Source: Chiloscyllium plagiosum
Taxonomy: Eukaryota
DNA length: 52,166 bases
Reading direction: 5' to 3'
NCBI RefSeq assembly: GCF_004010195.1
Contig: NC_057721.1
Coordinates: forward strand, 8,434,475 to 8,486,640
Shown here: piece by piece, positions 10,724 to 52,166 of the stretch
Layout: the number at the start of each line of letters is the position of its first letter
Numbering within the stretch: the first letter of the stretch is position 1
Notes under the pieces: model-generated
Databases searched by the model: none
What the model was told of the DNA's origin: nothing
Seen by the model: the letters and a program-made list of their open reading frames with translations, nothing else
Translations under genes and position numbers: made by a program

Positions 10724-10935
10724 TGCTGAAAAATGTGTTGCTGGAAAAGCGCAGCAGGTCAGGCAGCATCCAAGGAGCAGGAGAATCGACGTTTCGGGCA
10801 TAAGGAATCCTGAAAAAGGGCTTATGCCCGAAACGTCGATTCTCCTGTTCCTTGGATGCTGCCTGACCTGCTGCGCTTTTCCAGCAACACATTTTTCAGC
10901 TCTGATCTCCAGCATCTGCAGTCCTCACCTTCTCA
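10724..10935. mobile_element. Palindromic Penelope-derived mini-element with 16-bp target-site duplication
   Basis: Inverted arms; ACCTTTATGCACAAAT at 10708-10723 and 10936-10951. Confidence 0.85.
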
Positions 10936-11694: not shown

Positions 11695-11961
<267 letters not shown>

Positions 11962-22599: not shown

Positions 22600-22990
22600 A
22601 CAAATTCAAAAAGACAGTCGTGCATTTATGCAGTGCTTTTTATGACCTCAGGGTGTCTCTAAGTGCTTTACAGCCAACATTGTCAGTTTTGTATCACAGG
22701 AGACACTGCAACCAATTTGTGGACAATAATGGCTCACAAACAGTCATGCATTATTGGTGTTGAATCAGCTAAGTACTACCCAGGCCACGAGTTAAAATAC
22801 CCTTGCTCTTTTTGGAATACTGTCATTAGACCTTTTATGCAACCTGAGGTAGAAGAAAGTGCCTCAGTTTAATGTCTCAGCTCAAAAACAATGGCTCTAA
22901 CACTGTAGCAGTTCCCTAGAGCTCCACTGAGGCGTCAACCTTGATCTTGTGCTCAAGCCTCCACAGTCGGACTCGAATCCACAACTTGTA
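22600..22990 (-). mobile_element. Ancient DeuSINE/SacSINE-like element (similar decayed copies near 29190-29400, 35240-35480, 42560-42920)
   Basis: Shared degenerate core (CCTCAGTTTAATGTCTCA..., GTGCTCAAG...) recognised by eye. Confidence 0.45.
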
Positions 22991-24112: not shown

Positions 24113-25540
24113 TTAGGAGAAAGTGAGGATTGCAGATGCTGGAAATCAGAGTCAAAAGTTTGGTGCTGGAAAAGCACAGCAGATCAGGCAGCATCCGAGG
24201 AGCTGTCTCGACCAGTACCCTTCCACTGACATTCTCATTCGTTTGGCTGAGCTGGTCCTCACCCTCAATTATTTCTCCTTTGAATCCTCCCACTTCCTCC
24301 AGATGAAAGGGGGTGCCATGGCACCCGCATGGGCCCCAGTTTTGCCTGACTCTTTGTTAGTTACATAGAACAGTCCATCTTCCGCAGTTATACCGGCACC
24401 ACCTTTTCCTCCGCTACATTGATGACTATATCGGCGTCATCTTGTGCTCCCACGAGGGAAGTTGAACAGTTCAACAACTTCACCAACACATTCCACCCTG
24501 ACCTTAAGTTCACCTGGACAATCTCAGCCCACCCTTCCAACTGCAATAAGGACAAATCCCCCCCTACCCCCACCTTCCACTCGCCAACCTCTGTATCCTC
24601 TGCCATTTCCGCCACCTACATACGGACCCCACCACTAAAGGTATATTTCCCTCCCCTCCCCTATCTGATTTCCATAAAGACCATTCCCTCCGTGACTCTC
24701 TTGTCAGGTCCACAACCCACCCTCCCATCCCGGCAACTTCCCCTGCCACCGCAGGAATTGCAAAACCCACGCCCACACCTCCCACCTCACCTCCGTCCAA
24801 GGCCCTAAAGGAGGCTTCCACATCCATCAGAGTTTTACCTGCACTTCCACATGTCATTTTCCAGAATCTGTTGCTCTCGATGCGGTCTCCTCTACACTGG
24901 GGAGACAGGACCACATCCATCAGAGTTTTACCTGCACTTCCACATGTCATTTTCAGAATCTGTTGCTCTCGATGCGGTCTCCTCTACACTGGGGAGACAG
25001 GACACCTGCTTGCAGAGCGCTTCAGAGAACTTCTCTGGGACATTCGCACCAACCAACCCTCCCGCCTCATGGCCGAACACTTCAACTCCCCCTCCCACTC
25101 TGCCAAGGACATGCAGGTCCTGGGCCGCCTCCATCATCACACCCTTACCACCCGATACCCAGAGGAAAAACACCTACCTTCCGCCTTGGGACCCTCCAAA
25201 CACACGGCATCAATGTGGACTTCATTAGTTTCCTCATTTTCCCTGCCCCCACCTCATTCCAGTTCCAACCTTCCAACTTAGCACTGCCCTCATGACCTGT
25301 CCTGTCAATCTTCCTTCCCACCTATCCACTCCTCTCTGATTTATCACCATTACTCCCATCTCCATCTACCTATCGCACTCTAAGCTATCTTCCACCCCCC
25401 CAGCCCCACCCTCCTCCCTTTCATCTCGGCTCTCAAGCTTCATTCCTGATGAAGGGTTGTTACCCAAAACATCAATACCCCTGCTCCTCAGATGCTACCT
25501 GACCTGCTATGCTTTTCCAGTACCACATTTTTGGCATCCA
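24113..25540 (+). mobile_element. Penelope-like retroelement fragment (RT plus GIY-YIG endonuclease, terminal pseudo-LTR)
   Basis: LAELVLTLNYFSF..FLQ.KG.AM, FLRYIDD, CSRCGLLYTGETG..L.ERFRE, AEHFNSPSH; inverted partial LTR at the 5' end. Confidence 0.88.
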
Positions 25541-26107
25541 AAGAATGCCTATTTGCAAACACTAAGGCTGAAAGATCATAAATACATCTGCTTTTGGAGT
25601 ATAGTGTAAATAAATCTTTGAACACACAAAGCCAGACAGTTCCTAATAACGTCTGAAAGTGACTTGACATTGTTTTAAGAGAGGGGAGTGTGTGGTGCTG
25701 GAAAAGCACAGGTCTGGGAGCATCGATGTTTCTGGCAAAAGCCCTTCACAAGGAATTAGGCCAGGAATTGCTTTAAGCGAGGGCAATTTATGCTCGGATA
25801 CTATTTTCTTTACGGCACCCAAGGTTGTCAAGGGCTTGGAAAGGGTGCAGAATGACATTATTGTTTCAAAGAGCAAGTTCAGGTACAATGGAATTAGTTC
25901 CTTCTGGGTTCAATGAAAACAAACGTGCAAGGTAATTTAATTCAAGACTGAAATCCAATAAGCTCTTCATTCTACCATCCCCACTGCATTAGACACTTTA
26001 AAAAGATTAAATTTTACAACTGTAAAGTTGGGAAACAAATGTAGATAAATTTAGATCACAGGTATCAAACAAATAACGGAGACTGCATTGGACAAGTCAG
26101 CTCTCAC

Positions 26108-26274
26108 CTCGCCTTCTATTGTTAGGATCACAGAGTGATTGGAGCCACAAGCAACCTCCATCACTGTCTTGTCATAGAACATGCTTGAGACAAGGAAAGG
26201 CAATGAGCCTGGACCAGTTGTCCCATTACCCAGCTGGCCATAACTGTTGAGGCCCCAGGAATAAGTTTCTCCAT
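26108..26274 (-). CDS. RCBTB1: RCBTB1 coding exon, RCC1 repeat (DGETYSWGLNSYGQLGNGTTGPGSLPFLVSSMFYDKTVMEVACGSNHSVILTIEGE)
   Basis: Manual translation; tttcag/gtgag boundaries; 167 nt. Confidence 0.93.
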
Positions 26275-27269
26275 CTGAAAAAGATCATAATGGTTGGAAG
26301 TGACTGAAAAGCTCCAGAGACTATTTGAAGATGGCAGCCACAGATTCGGGTGCTGCCCAGAAATCTAAGTACATTTTGTATTTCAAATGAATAACATCAG
26401 TCTCACTTTCGCTGTGCAATTTTTTTTATCTGGATTGGTTCAGAGGCAGGTAAAGCAGAATCTACCCTGAAAAATTCTTCTCTTCCTCACCCATACAATC
26501 TAAGCCAAAGTGCCACCTCAAGGGCTGCCATTTCCACTGGATGTTGGCTCCTGGAGCAATGATCAATGTAAGGCAAAGTACATTAAGTGCAGTGGCACAA
26601 GACAAAGAAACGTACAATCACACGCTATAAGCTCAAGCCAACAAACTTGATTAACAAACACTTCCATCAGAGAACTCTGATGCAATACAATCAATTACAA
26701 TCTCTCCACTGGAACATTCATAGTTTTGTGAAAGAATATGGCACAAAACAAACAGAGCTTTGTTTTGTCAAAGACATTTCCTTAGAGCAGTGGAGCTCGG
26801 GAGGGGACAATGATGATGTATAAAATTATGAGTAGCATAGATAACTTTTCCCCTTTGTGAACAAATCAACGACCGGGAGCAGTTTTAAGACAAGAGTAGA
26901 AATTTTTATAAGAGACATGAGGAAAAACTATTTCCCGAGAGGATGATGGGAATCTGGAACTTGCTGCCTGTAAAGATGGTTGAGGCAGAAACTCATAACA
27001 TTTATGAAGTATTGAAATGTGCACATAGGATGCCAAGGCATACAAAGCGAGTATTAGGAAGTGCTGTAAAATACAATTAGAATAATTGCTGTTTGTTTTT
27101 GACCGAGTGCAGAAGCAATGGGTTGAAGGGCCTTTTACTGTCCTCTAGATCTCATTGACTCTCCTAAATTGAGGGAAGCTGCAACAACCACAATGGAAAC
27201 AATGTTAGCCAGAGAAAACAGCTGATACAGTTCAAGATTTCAAAGCCAATTTGAAAACCTAATCACCTT

Positions 27270-27486
27270 ATAGACAACAATCAATGCTGGAGATCACAGC
27301 GGGTCAGACAGCATCCATTGAGACAGAGCAAGCTAACATTTCAAGTTGAGTTGAGCTCTGATGAAGAGTCATCTAGATTTGAAACGTTAGTTTGCTCTCT
27401 CTCTGTGGATGCTGTCTGACTCGCTATGATCTCCAGCATTGATTGTTTTTAGTACAGATTCCAGCATCTGCTGTAATTTGCTTTTA
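27270..27486. mobile_element. Palindromic Penelope-derived mini-element, second family
   Basis: Inverted arms; CACCTTA flanking duplication; CTGATGA...GAAACGTT core at 27358-27388. Confidence 0.75.
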
Positions 27487-29362: not shown

Positions 29363-29647
<285 letters not shown>

Positions 29648-30746: not shown

Positions 30747-30942
30747 AAATGCAGAGGTGCCAGTGTTGAACTGGGGTAGACAAAGTCAGAAGTCACATGA
30801 CACCAGGTCATAGTCCAACAGGTTTATTTGAAATCACAAGCTTTCAGAGTGCTCCTCCATCATCAGCAGCAGCACTCCGAAAGCTAGTGATTTCAAATAA
30901 ACCTGTTGGACTATAACCTGGTGTCGTGTGACTTCTGACTTT
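30747..30942. mobile_element. Palindromic Penelope-derived mini-element, third family (related piece at about 5300-5550)
   Basis: ~65-bp inverted arms; minus-strand CTGATGA...GAAAGCTT at 30866-30838. Confidence 0.72.
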
Positions 30943-32344: not shown

Positions 32345-33240
32345 TATTGAACTGAATTGAATTTATTGTCACGTGTACCTAGACACAGTGAAAAGCTTTG
32401 TCTTGTGAGCAATACAGGCAGATCACAGAGTTAAGTAGCATAGATAAATAACTAATATGTAAACAGCGGCAAAAACAAAAACACAGGTATAGGCGAATGT
32501 TAAGAGTGTGTGAGTCCATTCAGTGTTCTAACAACAGTCGGGTGGAAACAGTTTTGAAATCAGCTAGTGTGTGTGTGTGTGTGTGTGTGTTCAGGATTCT
32601 GTACCTTCTCCCCAATGGTAGAGATTGTAGAAAAACATTGCCAGGGTGGGGTGGATCTTTGAGAATGTTGCCAGCCTTTCCTTGACAGCGGGCCTGGTAG
32701 ATGGATTCTACAGATGGGAGATTGGCCTTGTGATTGTCCGGACCGAGTTCACCACTCTCTATAACCGTCCTTGAATGGTACAGTTGCCATACCAGGTAAT
32801 GATATATCCAGACAGAATGCTCTCGATGGCGTACCTATAGTTGGCAAGGGTTGGCAAGAGTATTTGCTGTCATGCCAAGTTTCCTCAGCTGCCTGAGGAA
32901 GAAGAGACGTTGTTGGGCCTTTGTAATCAATGCATCAACATGAAGAATCCAAGAAAGCTTGTTGTGGATGACCGCTCCCAGGAGCTTGACACTCTCCACT
33001 TATTCCACCTCTGTGCTGTTAATGTGTAGGGGGGGCGGCATGAGTAACATCCGACGAAAGTCAATAATGAGTTCCTTGGTTTTGCTGGCATTGAGAGCTA
33101 GGTTGTTCTCCGTGCACCATTTTTCCAGGTCTTCACCCTCCCATCTGTAGTCTGTTTCATCGCCATCTGAGATTTGACTGACTACAGTGGTGTCATCAGT
33201 GAACCTGTAAATGGCATTATTCTGGTATTTGGCAACGCAA
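32345..33240 (-). mobile_element. Rex1/Babar-like LINE 3' fragment
   Basis: DDTTVV, KTKELIIDFR, KAQQRLFFLRQL motifs; (GT)n inside; AATTC tail. Confidence 0.75.
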
Positions 33241-34790
33241 TAATATCCTTCCTTACCCTATCAAAATTGTTCATAATTTTGAACAATAATATTAATCTTC
33301 TCTACTCCATGGCGAATAAGCCTAATCTCTCTAATCTTTCCACGTATTTAAAATCCTTCATTCCTGTCTCATTCTAGTAAACTGCCCTTTAATTCTCTCT
33401 CGGGCTTTAACATCCTTCCTTAAATAAAGTGCCTAGAACTGAATACGATACTCCAAATGTGGTCTGACCAATGATTTTAGGAGATGAAGCATCATTTCCT
33501 TGCTTTTATACTCTTATTTATAAACTCAAGGATCTTAGAAGCTTTCTTAACAATTGTTTCAATGTGTCTAGCCACCTTCATGTGAACCTTGAGGTCTCTC
33601 TGCTCCTGTACTCCCCTCAAAGTTGTACCATTAAGCCTATATTGCCTCTCCATGTTTCTTCCATCAAAATGTATCACCTCACATTTCTCTCCATTGAAAC
33701 TGAACTACCAGGTGCCTGTCCATTTGGTCAACTTTCAATGTCCCTCTAAAGTCGCTCAGCATCATCCTCACAATTCACTATTCTCCCTAGTTTAGTATCA
33801 TCTGCAAATGTAGAGATTCTGCTCTCTACACCCATCTCCAAATCATTTATATAAATCAGAAAATGCAAGAGTCCCAACACCCATACCTGGGGAACATCAC
33901 TTTCAACTCATCTCCAAAATGAGAAATGCCCATTTATTCCTATTGTTTCTTATCTTTTCAGCCAACTTCTAATCCATTCCACGATGATCTATCAATCCCA
34001 GACATTTGTAATTTGCTAACCAATCTGACATGGGGCACCATATCCAATGCCTTCTCAAAGTCCAAATATACATCATTCACAGCACTACCATCTTCCACTG
34101 CCTGTGTCACTTCGTCAAAGAACTCAATTAAATTTGTCAGAAATGACCTGCCCTTGACAAAGCCATGTTGAATGTCTCATATTAAATTACTTTTTCCTAA
34201 GTGTACATTTACTTTATCTCATATTATGGCCGCCATCAGGTTTCCTAGTATTGATATCAAGCTGACAGGTTTGTAGTTTCCTGGGTTATTATACTGTTAA
34301 ACAACAGTGTCACATTTGCAATCCACCAGTCCCCTAGAACTAATCCTGTGTTCAGGCAGGCCTGGAAGTTTTCTGTCAACTGCTCCGTAATTTCTCCCCT
34401 AACTCCCTCAGCAGTCGAGGATGCATCCCGTCCAGGCCTGGGAATTTCCCTACCTGGAGTGCTGCCAGCCTTTGTGCATCTCTTCTTTATCTATCAATAT
34501 ACTGTTCAGTTGCTCAACATCTGTGTTTTCAACTAGGCCACTGTCACCATCTTCTAACTTGGTATAGAGAGAAGCAAAATATTCATTTAGGGCCTCTGCC
34601 ATATCTTTTGCTTCAGTGAGCAGATTACCATTCTTGTTCCTTACGGGCCCCACTCTATCTTTTACTCTTAATATATTTTAAGAATATTTTACTATTTGTT
34701 GTGGCACAGCCTGCCATTCTTTCCTCATGCTTCCTCTGAAGTTTCCTTACTCCAGCCTTAGCATCTTCCTGCGATACTCTTTCTAATTTC
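33240..34790 (-). mobile_element. Decayed CR1 LINE
   Basis: QHGFVKGRS, DFEKA.D.VPH, FADDTK, EYRIQF motifs. Confidence 0.8.
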
Positions 34791-35220: not shown

Positions 35221-36699
35221 CCCTAGGGTGGATTTGAAAGATCCAATGGCAGTATTTCAAAGACAACAAGGAGCCCCACTCTCCTGTCCAATATTTATCC
35301 CTCAATTTGTTTTCTTTTGATGTTAATTGTCTGGTCATAACACATTGTTTTGTGGAAATTCACTGCTCGATTTCCGACATTACAACAGTGACGACACTTC
35401 AAAAGTACTTAATTGATCATAATATACTTTATGTTGGGTGATTGTGAAAAATGCTACCATAAATGGGTGTCTTCTTTCTGTGACTGTAACAGAAAGACAA
35501 AGCCATCATTTAAATGTCCCAACCAAAAGTGCAACATTCTCTCAGTTGTCAGCCTAGACTGTGCTCTACTCCTCAAGTTATGGCTGTGCTCCTAAAGAGA
35601 GAAACAGCTGCACCCAACTGACCTTTCAGTATTACAGACTGAGGGTTCAAGGATCAAGTGCACCATGAGTGACATTTACTAACTTGCATATATAAACATA
35701 TTACTTCTAATACTGAACATGGGTAGTCGAATAAAAACAAAATAAAAATGGCAACTCTAGAAATGATTACCAGCAGTTCTTAAACTAGCCACCATTAGTG
35801 TCACATGATTACTTTGTGACAGTACAACATATGTCACATTTCATTTATGTTAACTGACAAGGGCAACATTTCTAGATTTGTAATGCTGCCAAATATGTTG
35901 TTTACTGTTATACATACGGAAAACAGCCTGCAACAAAGTAACAGGAATTGCATGGTTATTTTCTGAACTCAGTACAGGATTGACTCCGTAATCAGAGGGG
36001 TTAAAATCAACTAGGTAAAAACAATGACTGCAGATGCTGGAAACCAGATTTTGGATTAGTGGTGGTGGAAGAGCACAGCAGTTCAGGCAGCATCCGAGGA
36101 GCGGCAAAATCGATGTTCCGGGCAAAAGCCTATATTGCCTTCATGTGAATAGGTGAAAAAGGAGATAGGCAGGTAGGACAAGTCATGGGGACAGTGCTGA
36201 GCTGGAAGTTTGGATATAAGGTGAGGTGGGGAAAGGGGAAATGAGTCCTTTTCTCACTGGAGGTTGACATCCAGTTCAATGAGGTCATCTAACAGTCCCA
36301 TTTCCGTGTCTATCGCGATTTGATATGGTGCAAGCTTATTTGCCCGGACAGCCAGCAAATTTCCTTTTGAGAAGACCGCCCCGATTGATGATCAGATTTG
36401 TGCAACTCTGCTTCCACCACCACCACCACCGTAATGTTCCAGATCGACAGAACTCAGAGTTCTTTCTCACATTCCTGCACCTTTTGCTCAAAGCCTACGC
36501 ATCTATTTAGAAACTACCAGGCCACTGTCGTTCACATCCTTCAGTCAGGAACCCACAGAAAACAGCTGACATTTAAGTTAAAATGGGAAGTAGATTCCTT
36601 TGGCTGAGCAGCGTGAGTTGTGTTGATCTGCCTCTGCACCATGGGCCCGGCCTGACAAGCAGGTTGTAGCTGAAAAACCGCACAAACGTAAATCCAGGT

Positions 36700-37170
36700 A
36701 TACAGCCTTACGATCATCGTAAAGTTATTTTTAACTTCCGTCCCCGGTCCGTCGAGCGGCCGCACGACGCCAGGAACCCCAGGAGATCACGTGCCACAAT
36801 GGAGGCGGGGCCCCACGGGAGACACGTTTCCCCATTGGCCGCTGAGGGTCACGTGCAGTCTGGAGGCGGGGTCTCCTTGGGAATCACGTGCCACCTATTA
36901 GAGGCGTGGCTCGATTGCGTCACGTGCCGCATTGGCCGGGGCTCGTTTCGCTGAGGGTCACGTGTAGTATTGGAGGCGGGGCACCGTTTGGAGTGATGTT
37001 TAGCATTGGAGGTAGGGCTCCGCGGGAGTCACGTCCCGCTCAGGATCACGTGTCGCATTGGAGGCTGGGCTCTGAGGATCACGTGGGGTTTCATGACGGG
37101 ACTGCTGCCAGGGAAACGTGTCAACCAAGAACCGGTCCCTTGAGTCACGTGGTATTTCGGCCGGTTGGTA
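36700..37170 (-). promoter_or_regulatory. CpG-rich probable RCBTB1 promoter with repeated E-box/CCAAT/GC-box units and an ETS-like CGGAAGT
   Basis: Only CpG-dense segment upstream of the RCBTB1 exons; eight TCACGTG, several ATTGG and GGCGGG; ACTTCCG at about 36734-36740. Confidence 0.7.
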
Positions 37171-37684
37171 TAATTCTGTCCCCAGGCTGTCAGTGCAGAT
37201 CACAGATCACATCAATCGATCCTGTGTGCGATATTCTCCCTACCAGTTACCCACAGTTGGAGCAATGGACTGGAAATTCAAGTTGGATCAGTGAGAATGA
37301 ATAGTTTTCCGCTCAGTGGAGCTGCTCCCTTTGACAAGACATCCCTCTCAGTGATGAATTATTCCTGGTTGAATATTGAGTAGGAGAGCTCTTTGTTACA
37401 TAGGGTCAAGAGACCTTCCCCAACACCAGAAGGTCTAGGTATGATGTATAAATAGAAGGCAGCACTCGCTCAACACTGCATTGGTGTGAAAATTTTGATT
37501 TCATAATCGATTCAAGAAAGATTACAATATTATACAAAATAAATGAAGAATTTATCGAGTGGAAAGAATGCAGTCTACAGAAATACTATAGAATTATTTT
37601 TTTTCAGGAAAGCCTTTGTAAAGAAGATCTGGAAAAATATTCAGTGGTTTTTGTGAGGTTCGTCCCGAGCAGCTCCATAGGGTC

Positions 37685-50660: not shown

Positions 50661-50822
50661 CAGGGTGAAGTGCACGATGGCATCATAGAAGAGCCAACCC
50701 AGGAGTGCCCGGTCCAGCGACAGGCAATATCGCCCAAAGCTCAACGCCAGTGCCCAAGCCAGTGGCACCTGAGCGGTGCAGAGCAGTAGCGAGGACAGCG
50801 CTGCCGGACTCAGCAGCGGCAT
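50661..50822 (-). CDS. EBPL: EBPL exon 1 coding part (MPLLSPAALSSLLLCTAQVPLAWALALSFGRYCLSLDRALLGWLFYDAIVHFTL)
   Basis: Within ORF 50526..50822; WL.YDA.VHF.L motif; donor gtcagt; in-frame upstream TGA fixes the ATG; four exons total 606 nt. Confidence 0.92.
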
Positions 50823-51183
50823 TCCCTGCTCCTCGATTCGCAGATTCCGGAACCAGTCTCCTCCAACTTCTCCAGCGGAAAAGGCTCAAGCACATCCAGG
50901 AGCTTTATCTCACTCCTTAAACATCACACTTCTCCTTCCTCACTGTTTTCCAGCCTTGTTCGGGAACATTATCTGCTTCATTAGTCATCTATTCATTCAT
51001 CGAAATCAATCCAAGACGTGCAAAATTAACGAGCGCTTCTGAAAACAAAACTGCAACAATTCCGGTCGGTGAGCACCTTGCAAAGACCACAGACTCTCAC
51101 TTCTCATTGTCACCGCCTGGTGCCGAAAATCGGAATTACAGGCGCTTCATTGGAGTTCGGCACCTCCGGGCGGTCTTTGGGAA

Positions 51184-51726
51184 TTCAGGCTGAGTTTCCT
51201 GCCCCCAGTGGCGGTGTCCGGGAGTTCAGAGTGAGTTTACTCCCCTCGGTGGCGGTGCCCGGTAGTTCAGGGTGAGTTTGCTGCCCCCCGGTGGCGGTGT
51301 CCAGGAGTTCAGGGTGAGTTTGTTGCCCCCCGGTGCCGGTGTCCGGGAGTTCAGGGTGAGTTTGCTGCCCCCCGGTGGTGGTGTCCGGGAGTTCAAGGTG
51401 AGTTTGCTGCCTCCGGTGGTGGTGTCCGGTAGTTCAGGGTGAGTTTGCTGCCCACGGTGGCGGTGTCCGGTAATTCAGGGTGAGTTTGCTGCCCCCCGGT
51501 GGTGGTGTCCGGGAGTTCAGGGTGAGTTTGCTGCCTCCGGTGGTGGTGTCCGGTAGTTCAGGGTGAGTTTGCTGCCCCCCGGTGGCGGTGTCCGGGAGTT
51601 CAGGGTGAGTTTGCTGCCCCCCCGTGGCGGTGTCCAGGAGTTCAGGGTGAGTTTGCTGCCCCCCGGTGGCGATGTCCGGGAGTTCAGGGTGAGTTTGCTG
51701 CCCCCCGGTGGCGGTGTCCGGGAGTT
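51184..51726. repeat. Minisatellite, 13 copies of 41-42 bp (TTCAGGGTGAGTTTGCTGCCCCCCGGTGGCGGTGTCCGGGAG)
   Basis: Unit starts at 51184, 51225, 51266, 51308, 51350, 51392, 51433, 51474, 51516, 51557, 51599, 51641, 51683. Confidence 0.97.
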
Positions 51727-51783
51727 GACGCTGTCGAACATTCTCTGGTCTCCTCGGTGGCGGGCGGAGCTGAGCGGAGCGCG

Positions 51784-51852
51784 ATGGCCGACAGCAGCGG
51801 CGCCGAGAACCACCGCATCAAAAGCTTCAAGAACAAGGGCCGCGATGTCGAG
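51784..51852 (+). CDS. KPNA3: KPNA3 (importin alpha) first coding exon, MADSSGAENHRIKSFKNKGRDVE; gene continues beyond the window
   Basis: ENHRIKSFKNKGRDVE matches KPNA3 rather than KPNA4; Kozak gcgATGG; donor GAG|gtgagt; CpG-island context; synteny with EBPL. Confidence 0.93.
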
Positions 51853-52166
51853 GTGAGTGATCGGGGGGCGGTTAGGGCGGAGTGTGGAAGGGAGCCGGCC
51901 GCCTGACGGGGGCTTTCCGTGAGTCACCGAGGCCTCGGGGGAGCCTGGGCCGGGGATTCCTCCTCCACCGGGGACTGGGCTGGAGGCCCAGCTCGGGCCT
52001 GAGGTGCCTCCCGCGGGTCAGGATACTCCGACAGGGGCCTGTGGCCCGGCCCGCTCCAGGCCCCGCCGCCTGGGGATGGGCGGCCCCACCCGGTTCACAC
52101 CGACTCCCCGACCCCCACCCCTTACTCCCCCCACCCCCTGACCCTCACCCCCCCACCCCCTGACCC

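Follow-up and report, generated by a model that had tools for sequence, protein, structure and literature searches.

Tandem repeats that carry a CTCF site in every unit have a described example in DXPas34 of the mouse Xist/Tsix locus, a 34-bp CpG-rich minisatellite near the Tsix promoter with one CTCF site per monomer (PMC3149622). CTCF is reported to cover approximately 40 bp of DNA, from position −18 to position 21 (PMC10484683). Besides the core, a second motif is read by zinc fingers 9–11, with its T preceding core position 1 by 17 or 18 bases (PMC10287918 supplement; PMC12885311). This two-part motif is described as common to lamprey, chicken and human (PMC5504073). At mouse promoters, forward CTCF sites are reported to activate housekeeping genes, with the activating position at a median of ~79 bp upstream of the start (PMC12695661).

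In this study, a 52,166-bp stretch of the Chiloscyllium plagiosum genome (the window) was analysed, in which a minisatellite with a CTCF-like motif in its unit lies between EBPL and KPNA3. The anatomy of the array, the gene layout, the motif scores, the register of the upstream motif and the spread of variants were read directly from the sequence. With a probability of roughly 0.5, we interpret the array as a recently amplified promoter CTCF site that is probably bound, would act locally and appears weakly constrained. A literature search, covering mostly open-access papers and their best matches only, found no description of the EBPL–KPNA3 array locus; papers with both gene names were mammalian by title, and elasmobranchs were absent among the matches listed.

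Array anatomy and gene layout

Tandem Repeats Finder placed the array at 51179–51726, with a period of 42, 13.2 copies, 90% matches and a score of 872, by far the top of 13 rows in the window. This confirmed the repeat noted in a preliminary description of this DNA, where its start had been set at 51184, 5 bp inside these limits. The 548 bp, known from one haplotype, comprise eight units of 42 bp, five units of 41 bp and a partial unit, arranged head to tail and within the ~10–60 bp unit range of minisatellites. The units differ from the modal unit by 0–5 changes. Variants common to units 5–7 and units 8–10 suggest that the latter arose from the former by a three-unit duplication. Outside the array, blastn within the window found no copies of the unit (best outside match 15 bp, E 3.5), and a transposon origin was rejected on this result. 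A 15-bp unit-like piece just 3′ of the array (51749–51763), before a GC box at 51762, is possibly a decayed 14th copy.

The divergent gene starts reported earlier were both recovered. The first coding exon of KPNA3 (23 codons followed by a GT donor; 51784..51852, plus strand) was identified by tblastn and matched residues 1–27 of a rodent importin alpha-4 model with 74% identity (E 2.8e-7). On the minus strand, the first coding exon of EBPL (54 codons; 50661..50822, ATG at 50822) belongs to a four-exon gene, with further exons at ~48683–48615, 45946–45788 and 43972–43736; the best match of the last exon was whale shark (88%). The two ATGs are separated by 962 bp, of which the array takes up 548 bp. 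The array ends 57 bp before the KPNA3 ATG (51784), as previously stated, and lies 357–904 bp away from the EBPL ATG. Minus-strand exons of an RCBTB-family gene, with BTB and RCC1-repeat sequences, were located downstream of EBPL at 11695–11961, 26054–26284 and 29363–29647 (three of the 118 frames scanned). By mammalian synteny, in which RCBTB1 is the neighbour, this gene is a candidate RCBTB1, with RCBTB2 as the alternative.

In three fused gene models, one each from a rodent, a bat and a sturgeon (the sturgeon model being labelled unverified), EBPL forms the C-terminal end of an importin, which implies that in those species the two genes stand in tandem on the same strand with EBPL downstream of KPNA3. 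The head-to-head arrangement found here is opposite to these three bony-vertebrate models, a difference that the preliminary description had missed. KPNA3 appears to have been inverted in one lineage, with the array at the junction.

With simple promoter motifs, no TATA box was found downstream of 50600. In the same search, ETS-like (51065), CCAAT (51153) and GC-box (51168) words were observed at 51060–51175, flanking a single CTCF-like site. A second CpG island at 36600–37200 (observed/expected CpG ratio 0.9–1.06) contains approximately eight degenerate E-box copies, several of them with CCAAT-box and GC-box words after them at a similar distance. This island is probably the RCBTB promoter, and duplication of a binding-site module may have enlarged it as well. 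Other features of the window include a decayed retroelement-like frame that contains a 92-bp tandem duplication (24818–25033), a reverse-transcriptase fragment (33003–33257) and several dispersed repeat families, some of which occur as near-perfect hairpins (10725–10900, 27276–27447 and 30782–30942). In KPNA3 intron 1, a C-rich tandem repeat of 22 bp (52106–52166), with G-quadruplex patterns on the minus strand, is cut by the window end.

CTCF motifs in the repeat unit

Both strands were scanned with a reconstruction of the JASPAR MA0139.1 counts that is internally consistent (column sums 908–913). The thresholds of 8.35, 13.15 and 17.0 bits correspond to p values of 1e-4, 1e-5 and 1e-6, respectively. 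Eight of the 13 units scored above the usual threshold of p < 1e-4 with this matrix; these were all eight 42-bp units and none of the five 41-bp units, which fail because the 1-bp loss breaks the register of the motif. Six units, at ~17–18 bits, passed p < 1e-6 on a uniform background, and with a background of 65% GC, seven of the eight 42-bp units were still past 1e-4.

The motifs below are all on the minus strand. Units 1–2 (41 bp; 51179..51260), the most divergent and located at the array edge, have a broken core and scored 7.0 and 3.5 bits. Units 3–5 (42 bp; 51261..51386) have core position 1 at 51294, 51336 and 51378, with 17.8, 10.7 and 17.1 bits. A 1-bp deletion breaks the core of units 6–7 (41 bp; 51387..51468; 6.7 and 0.0 bits). 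Unit 8 (42 bp; 51469..51510) has core position 1 at 51502, with 17.1 bits and 7/9 matches to the upstream motif, and is followed by unit 9 (41 bp; 51511..51551), where the core is again broken (6.7 bits). Units 10–13 (42 bp; 51552..51719) have core position 1 at 51585, 51627, 51669 and 51711 and scored 17.8, 14.7, 18.5 and 17.8 bits; their upstream motifs, at regular spacing, match at 7/9, 6/9, 7/9 and 5/9 positions.

The six units previously listed with an intact core were found again: the 15-mer is exact at 51280, 51364, 51488, 51571, 51655 and 51697, the earlier coordinates denoting the same units in another register, each 14 bp earlier. Two more units match the 15-mer with 1–2 mismatches, and any match occurred in 0/100 shuffles. 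A 19-mer said to be present in each unit is exact in only 5 of 13. The remaining units had been described as 1–2 nt variants, which by count applies to five of the seven; units 1 and 2 differ at 3/15 positions. Five of the seven non-intact units carry a 1-bp deletion in or beside the C run, which breaks the motif register.

Co-orientation held for all strong motifs, which lie on the minus strand, seven of them at p < 5e-6, a number of co-oriented strong sites in keeping with an insulator cluster. It did not extend to four units with a weaker overlapping plus-strand site (8.5–10.4 bits, p < 1e-4). Outside 51090–51760, the scan returned 22 sites of at least 5 bits, seven of them past 1e-4, approximately the chance level, and the best at 11.5 bits.

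The statistic for the whole array reflects amplification only, since one lucky unit could have been copied 13 times, and chance was therefore tested on a single unit. Among circular shuffles of the modal 42-mer, 17.8 bits was reached by 9/20,000 mononucleotide and 11/20,000 dinucleotide shuffles, 13.15 bits by 59/20,000 and 134/20,000, and 8.35 bits by 421/20,000 and 1004/20,000, respectively. The CTCF match of the unit is uncommon, though within reach of a genome-wide scan. Other GC-binding zinc-finger factors could also bind the 42-bp unit.

Core position 6 is G in all intact units, which costs 4.7 bits with the reconstructed matrix; this position is a fixed A in the published 14-nt CTCF core (PMC10287918). 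Strong CTCF sites are reported to buffer single mismatches in many cases (PMC3310774; bioRxiv 10.64898/2026.01.05.696797). GC-rich flanks are reported to lower CTCF affinity, and matrix scores to agree poorly with measured affinity (rho 0.33; bioRxiv 10.64898/2026.01.05.696797). In Hox clusters, motif scanning alone was described as a weak predictor of CTCF sites (PMC5504073).

Part of the CTCF upstream motif is also present in the array units and stands in its proper register; this had been missed earlier. In Spec-seq libraries, the upstream motif starts with T at −17 (PMC10287918 supplement), and the reported structure of zinc fingers 9–11 shows specificity at T−12 and C−10, with contacts at −9, −15 and −16 (PMC10484683). 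Compared with a merged upstream consensus, the unit matched at 7/9 positions when aligned in the regular register, and this register ranked first among 42 offsets. The unit contains four of the five contacted bases (T−12, C−10, C−9 and G−16), the C at −15 being missing. When the core was fixed and the other 23 bases were shuffled, 1869/200,000 shuffles were as good at either spacing. Under seven definitions of the upstream motif, the p values were 0.0095, 0.0068, 0.17, 0.089, 0.043, 0.15 and 0.050, four of the seven below 0.05. A core of at least 13.15 bits together with 7/9 upstream matches was reached by 0/20,000 mononucleotide shuffles and 1/20,000 dinucleotide shuffles. The upstream motif gives modest, definition-dependent backing to the preferred reading. 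Together, the scores (eight of 13 units past the usual thresholds) and the partial in-register upstream motif support the earlier proposal that a CTCF-like site was amplified as a minisatellite. Given the footprint of ~40 bp, one unit corresponds to approximately one footprint, and neighbouring CTCF proteins would nearly touch.

A single two-part CTCF-like site, likewise missed before, lies outside the array at 51108–51141 on the minus strand, in the same orientation, 38 bp beyond the array and 301 bp upstream of the EBPL ATG. Its core is weak and scores 7.7 bits (p 1.3e-4) with A6 intact, and its upstream motif matches at 8/9 positions with regular core–upstream spacing. The site was found post hoc, and its upstream-match p values range from 0.0002 to 0.039 over the same seven definitions. 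It is identical to the unit at 17/26 motif positions and at 5/16 others, which suggests an independent site and not a decayed copy of the unit. No upstream motif close to the promoter matches better, and the site is a candidate for the older functional one. One of the 22 sites outside the array region also has 7/9 upstream matches in register: a weak core of 6.8 bits on the plus strand (22628–22661, position 1 at 22646), which lies within the RCBTB gene and is oriented towards the array.

Twenty distinct variants were counted among the array copies: nine in core positions 1–14 (6.7 expected; binomial p 0.34), four in the upstream motif and seven elsewhere. This low-powered, within-array comparison gave no sign of purifying selection on the motif, nor of the constraint at motif positions expected of insulator clusters (9/20 core variants versus 6.7 expected). 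Individual copies are unprotected, although selection acting on the whole set would be masked by redundancy.

This variant spread fits the foremost alternative, an ordinary GC-rich minisatellite with an incidental likeness to CTCF sites, little bound and functionless, which we regard as possible but doubtful. It would also account for the five broken units of 13 and for the mismatch at a highly conserved position. Moreover, the dinucleotide shuffle rates at p < 1e-4 and p < 1e-5 mean that a genome-wide scan over many GC-rich repeats would yield such cases. However, 17.8 bits is reached in only ~5 of 10,000 shuffles, the upstream motif stands in exact register, and an independent two-part site adjoins the array. 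In the preferred reading of an amplified promoter site, the origin from a real CTCF site, the binding of CTCF, the methylation state and any effect on transcription are predictions from such features.

Regulatory readings of the array

Within this preferred reading, the array would lie in a CpG-island-like, presumably unmethylated promoter, where CTCF would probably occupy some of the eight intact units with moderate affinity. The likely effect would be local: an open promoter would be maintained and nucleosomes would be positioned. The array copies would be redundant and drifting.

The strong array motifs read with EBPL and in reverse to KPNA3, and the forward direction is the arrangement that would be activating by analogy with mouse. 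Among mouse promoters strongly bound by CTCF, expression was reported to be lost on depletion in 29% of those with a forward motif or no motif versus 2% of those with reverse motifs only (PMC12695661). The same study describes repression by CTCF over the core promoter and blocking of antisense starts further upstream (PMC12695661). If "forward" in that study is the standard motif orientation, as we assumed, activation would fall on EBPL, and KPNA3 would be either unaffected or dampened. The reverse orientation argues against activation of KPNA3 by the array. Against the preferred reading, the array lies 357–904 bp from the EBPL ATG compared with ~79 bp from the start in mouse, the ATG being used here in place of the start. 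If it served as an anchor, the array would be oriented to the EBPL/RCBTB side, and any cohesin stalling there would be a by-product of local action.

Rather unlikely is the role proposed in the preliminary description, namely an insulator or loop-anchor cluster, switched by methylation, with a number of copies that would determine a domain boundary or the activity of KPNA3. Its starting observation was correct: the A-to-G change at core position 6 creates a CpG at positions 5–6. The methylation sensitivity deduced from this CpG did not hold up, because the unit has CpA at positions 2–3 and 12–13 and lacks the CpG at core 2–3 that defines the H19-type methylation-sensitive class. In a reported scan of CpG methylation across the core, strong sensitivity was confined to positions 2–3 (PMC5694663), and structural work describes C2 as methylation-sensitive and C12 as insensitive (PMC10484683). 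For weak variants such as G6, that scan may have been underpowered. In addition, full CpG methylation abolished the binding of both CTCF and BORIS to SVA VNTR probes (PMC5007689). On these two points, dense methylation could still matter. The array region is CpG-island-like, with an observed/expected ratio of 0.6–0.9 versus 0.31 for the window. No excess of CpG transitions was found among the array copies (3/11 distinct G/C transitions versus ~2.3 expected), giving no sign of germline methylation at the array.

The insulator role has precedents at Sox2, where insulation needed 2–4 tandem sites with the upstream motif typical of insulators (summarised in PMC12885311), and in the human HRNR VNTR, in which the predicted number of sites tracks both repeat length (r 0.996) and the predicted folding change (bioRxiv 10.1101/2022.03.17.484784). 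The motif orientation would block influence from the EBPL/RCBTB side, and the array stands where the orientation of KPNA3 departs from the three bony-vertebrate models. On the other side, besides the position of the CpG and the island-like, transition-poor state of the region, the core is unconstrained among copies, and ATGs 962 bp apart would be too near for a loop boundary between the promoters. Clustered sites are also reported to go with active promoters and single sites with non-promoter DNA (PMC10832218).

Such clustering bears on a further reading that we consider unlikely, though a genuine lead: a germline element in which a clustered CTCF/CTCFL (BORIS) site drives or boosts KPNA3 or EBPL in testis. 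The array has at least two motifs close together in a promoter setting, as do the clustered CTCF/BORIS sites (2xCTS). The mouse CTCFL motif is reported to be poorer in A at position 6 and richer in G at positions 8 and 11, and CTCFL to prefer promoters (PMC3418201); the unit has G at 6, 8 and 11, provided that the numbering matches the mouse motif. CTCF/BORIS co-binding is described as typical of simple tandem repeats, 171 of which were validated (PMC5007689), and BORIS is reported to make clustered sites into start sites (PMC10832218). Shark CTCFL exists and shows testis-biased expression, and the binding of CTCF is reported to have been mapped in shark (PMC7471279). However, C1, C2 and A3 are retained in the unit, bases that the mouse CTCFL motif shows more weakly or not at all, and the mouse motif may not be that of the shark.

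The rival readings are not all mutually exclusive. A combined one, which we hold to be quite unlikely, is that a CTCFL-tilted two-part site was amplified at the KPNA3 inversion junction and serves as a copy-number-variable dial on a rearranged bidirectional promoter, partitioned by CTCF in soma and switched by CTCFL to a germline start-site cluster in testis. If true, full-footprint sites would form a natural dose series in a non-mammal, in which the control of a germline promoter would be tied to a minisatellite and to a rearrangement junction.

It is very unlikely that the array forms part of the KPNA3 5′ leader and acts on RNA, through repeated U1 sites, ATG-skipping donors or a short upstream ORF. 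Twelve of the 13 units (units 2–13) each contain one 5′ splice-site-like word on the sense strand (51228..51694, plus strand), identical at +1 to +6 to the KPNA3 exon-1 donor, and 11 of the 13 plus-strand GGTGAGT words of the window fall inside the array. A variant in unit 12 creates a six-codon upstream ORF out of the KPNA3 frame (51672..51692, plus strand). The gap between array and ATG is just 57 bp, with no TATA box found. The donor words are weakened by the shuffles, in which such a word occurred in 345/50,000 (mononucleotide) to 2510/50,000 (dinucleotide) units, far more commonly than the CTCF match. The predicted RNA fold was worse than all 20 shuffles (z +2.75), and no protein with a repeat-derived extension was found, a weak negative from one of four open frames.

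A 258-nt stop-free frame (51526–51783, plus strand) is continuous with the KPNA3 ATG and has no ATG of its own, only CTG and GTG in its last 40 nt. A coding extension of KPNA3 was rejected on the missing ATG and a Pfam search that returned nothing meaningful; automatic annotation could nevertheless wrongly extend KPNA3 into the repeat. Searches with the 86-residue array frame gave 54 matches at E ≤ 0.001, all of 19–52% identity and taken as repeat-to-repeat noise. With the 86-residue frame joined to KPNA3 exon 1, there was one weak match among 5038 longer candidates, again for one of four open frames. The window had zero Rfam matches, and no canonical G4 pattern was found in the array; with the fold result, a structured RNA or three-tier G-quadruplex was rejected.

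Finally, the copy number of the array is that of the assembled sequence, and an assembly artefact is highly improbable given zero N in the window and an internal structure of 0–5 changes from the modal unit, a three-unit pattern of shared variants and the most diverged copies at one edge.

Comparison with described systems

The shark and mammal lineages diverged over 400 million years ago. If the array is bound, sharks would join mammals, the group for which the literature found describes CTCF sites amplified as minisatellites. The array would also be a compact natural system for asking how the number of CTCF sites, the upstream motif and the position-6 mismatch sum at a promoter, and a typable marker beside KPNA3. 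The principle has already been published for DXPas34, the CTCF/BORIS-bound VNTRs and HRNR, so the gain would be a new case and not a new mechanism. A paper on the INS VNTR and MAZ (PMC8282625) was considered as a comparison and set aside as not relevant.

Like DXPas34, the array is a CpG-rich minisatellite of short monomers with a CTCF site per monomer near a promoter, and we count as a further likeness that DXPas34 is also lineage-restricted, with monomer numbers differing between species (PMC3149622). DXPas34 differs in its tested role in X inactivation and its proposed transposon origin (PMC3149622), whereas the array has two protein-coding neighbours and no related element in the window, and is known from sequence alone. 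With the CTCF/BORIS-bound VNTRs, the array shares GC-rich units that build clustered tandem sites in a promoter-type setting; those VNTRs were characterized by ChIP in human cells, while binding at the array is predicted from a whole core and a partial upstream motif in each intact unit. The coding VNTR of HRNR likewise repeats a two-part CTCF motif with the VNTR and carries a copy-number hypothesis (bioRxiv 10.1101/2022.03.17.484784), the one also put forward in the preliminary description. It is much larger, exonic and accompanied by population expression data, in contrast to the 548-bp, non-coding array represented by one haplotype.

The DXZ4 and ICCE repeats are also tandem arrays of CTCF motifs (PMC3491370, PMC6125249), described as macrosatellite or superloop anchors of the inactive X, whereas the array is a sub-kilobase promoter repeat. 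Promoter-bound CTCF sites resemble it in placing a motif near housekeeping-type starts with orientation-dependent output (PMC12695661). They are usually single sites at a median of ~79 bp upstream of the start (PMC12695661), in contrast to the eight intact copies between divergent genes here. By analogy, the array would work like DXPas34, the CTCF/BORIS-bound VNTRs and HRNR; its kinship with insulator clusters is a predicted role only, and it falls outside the methylation-sensitive class by the defining test of that class.
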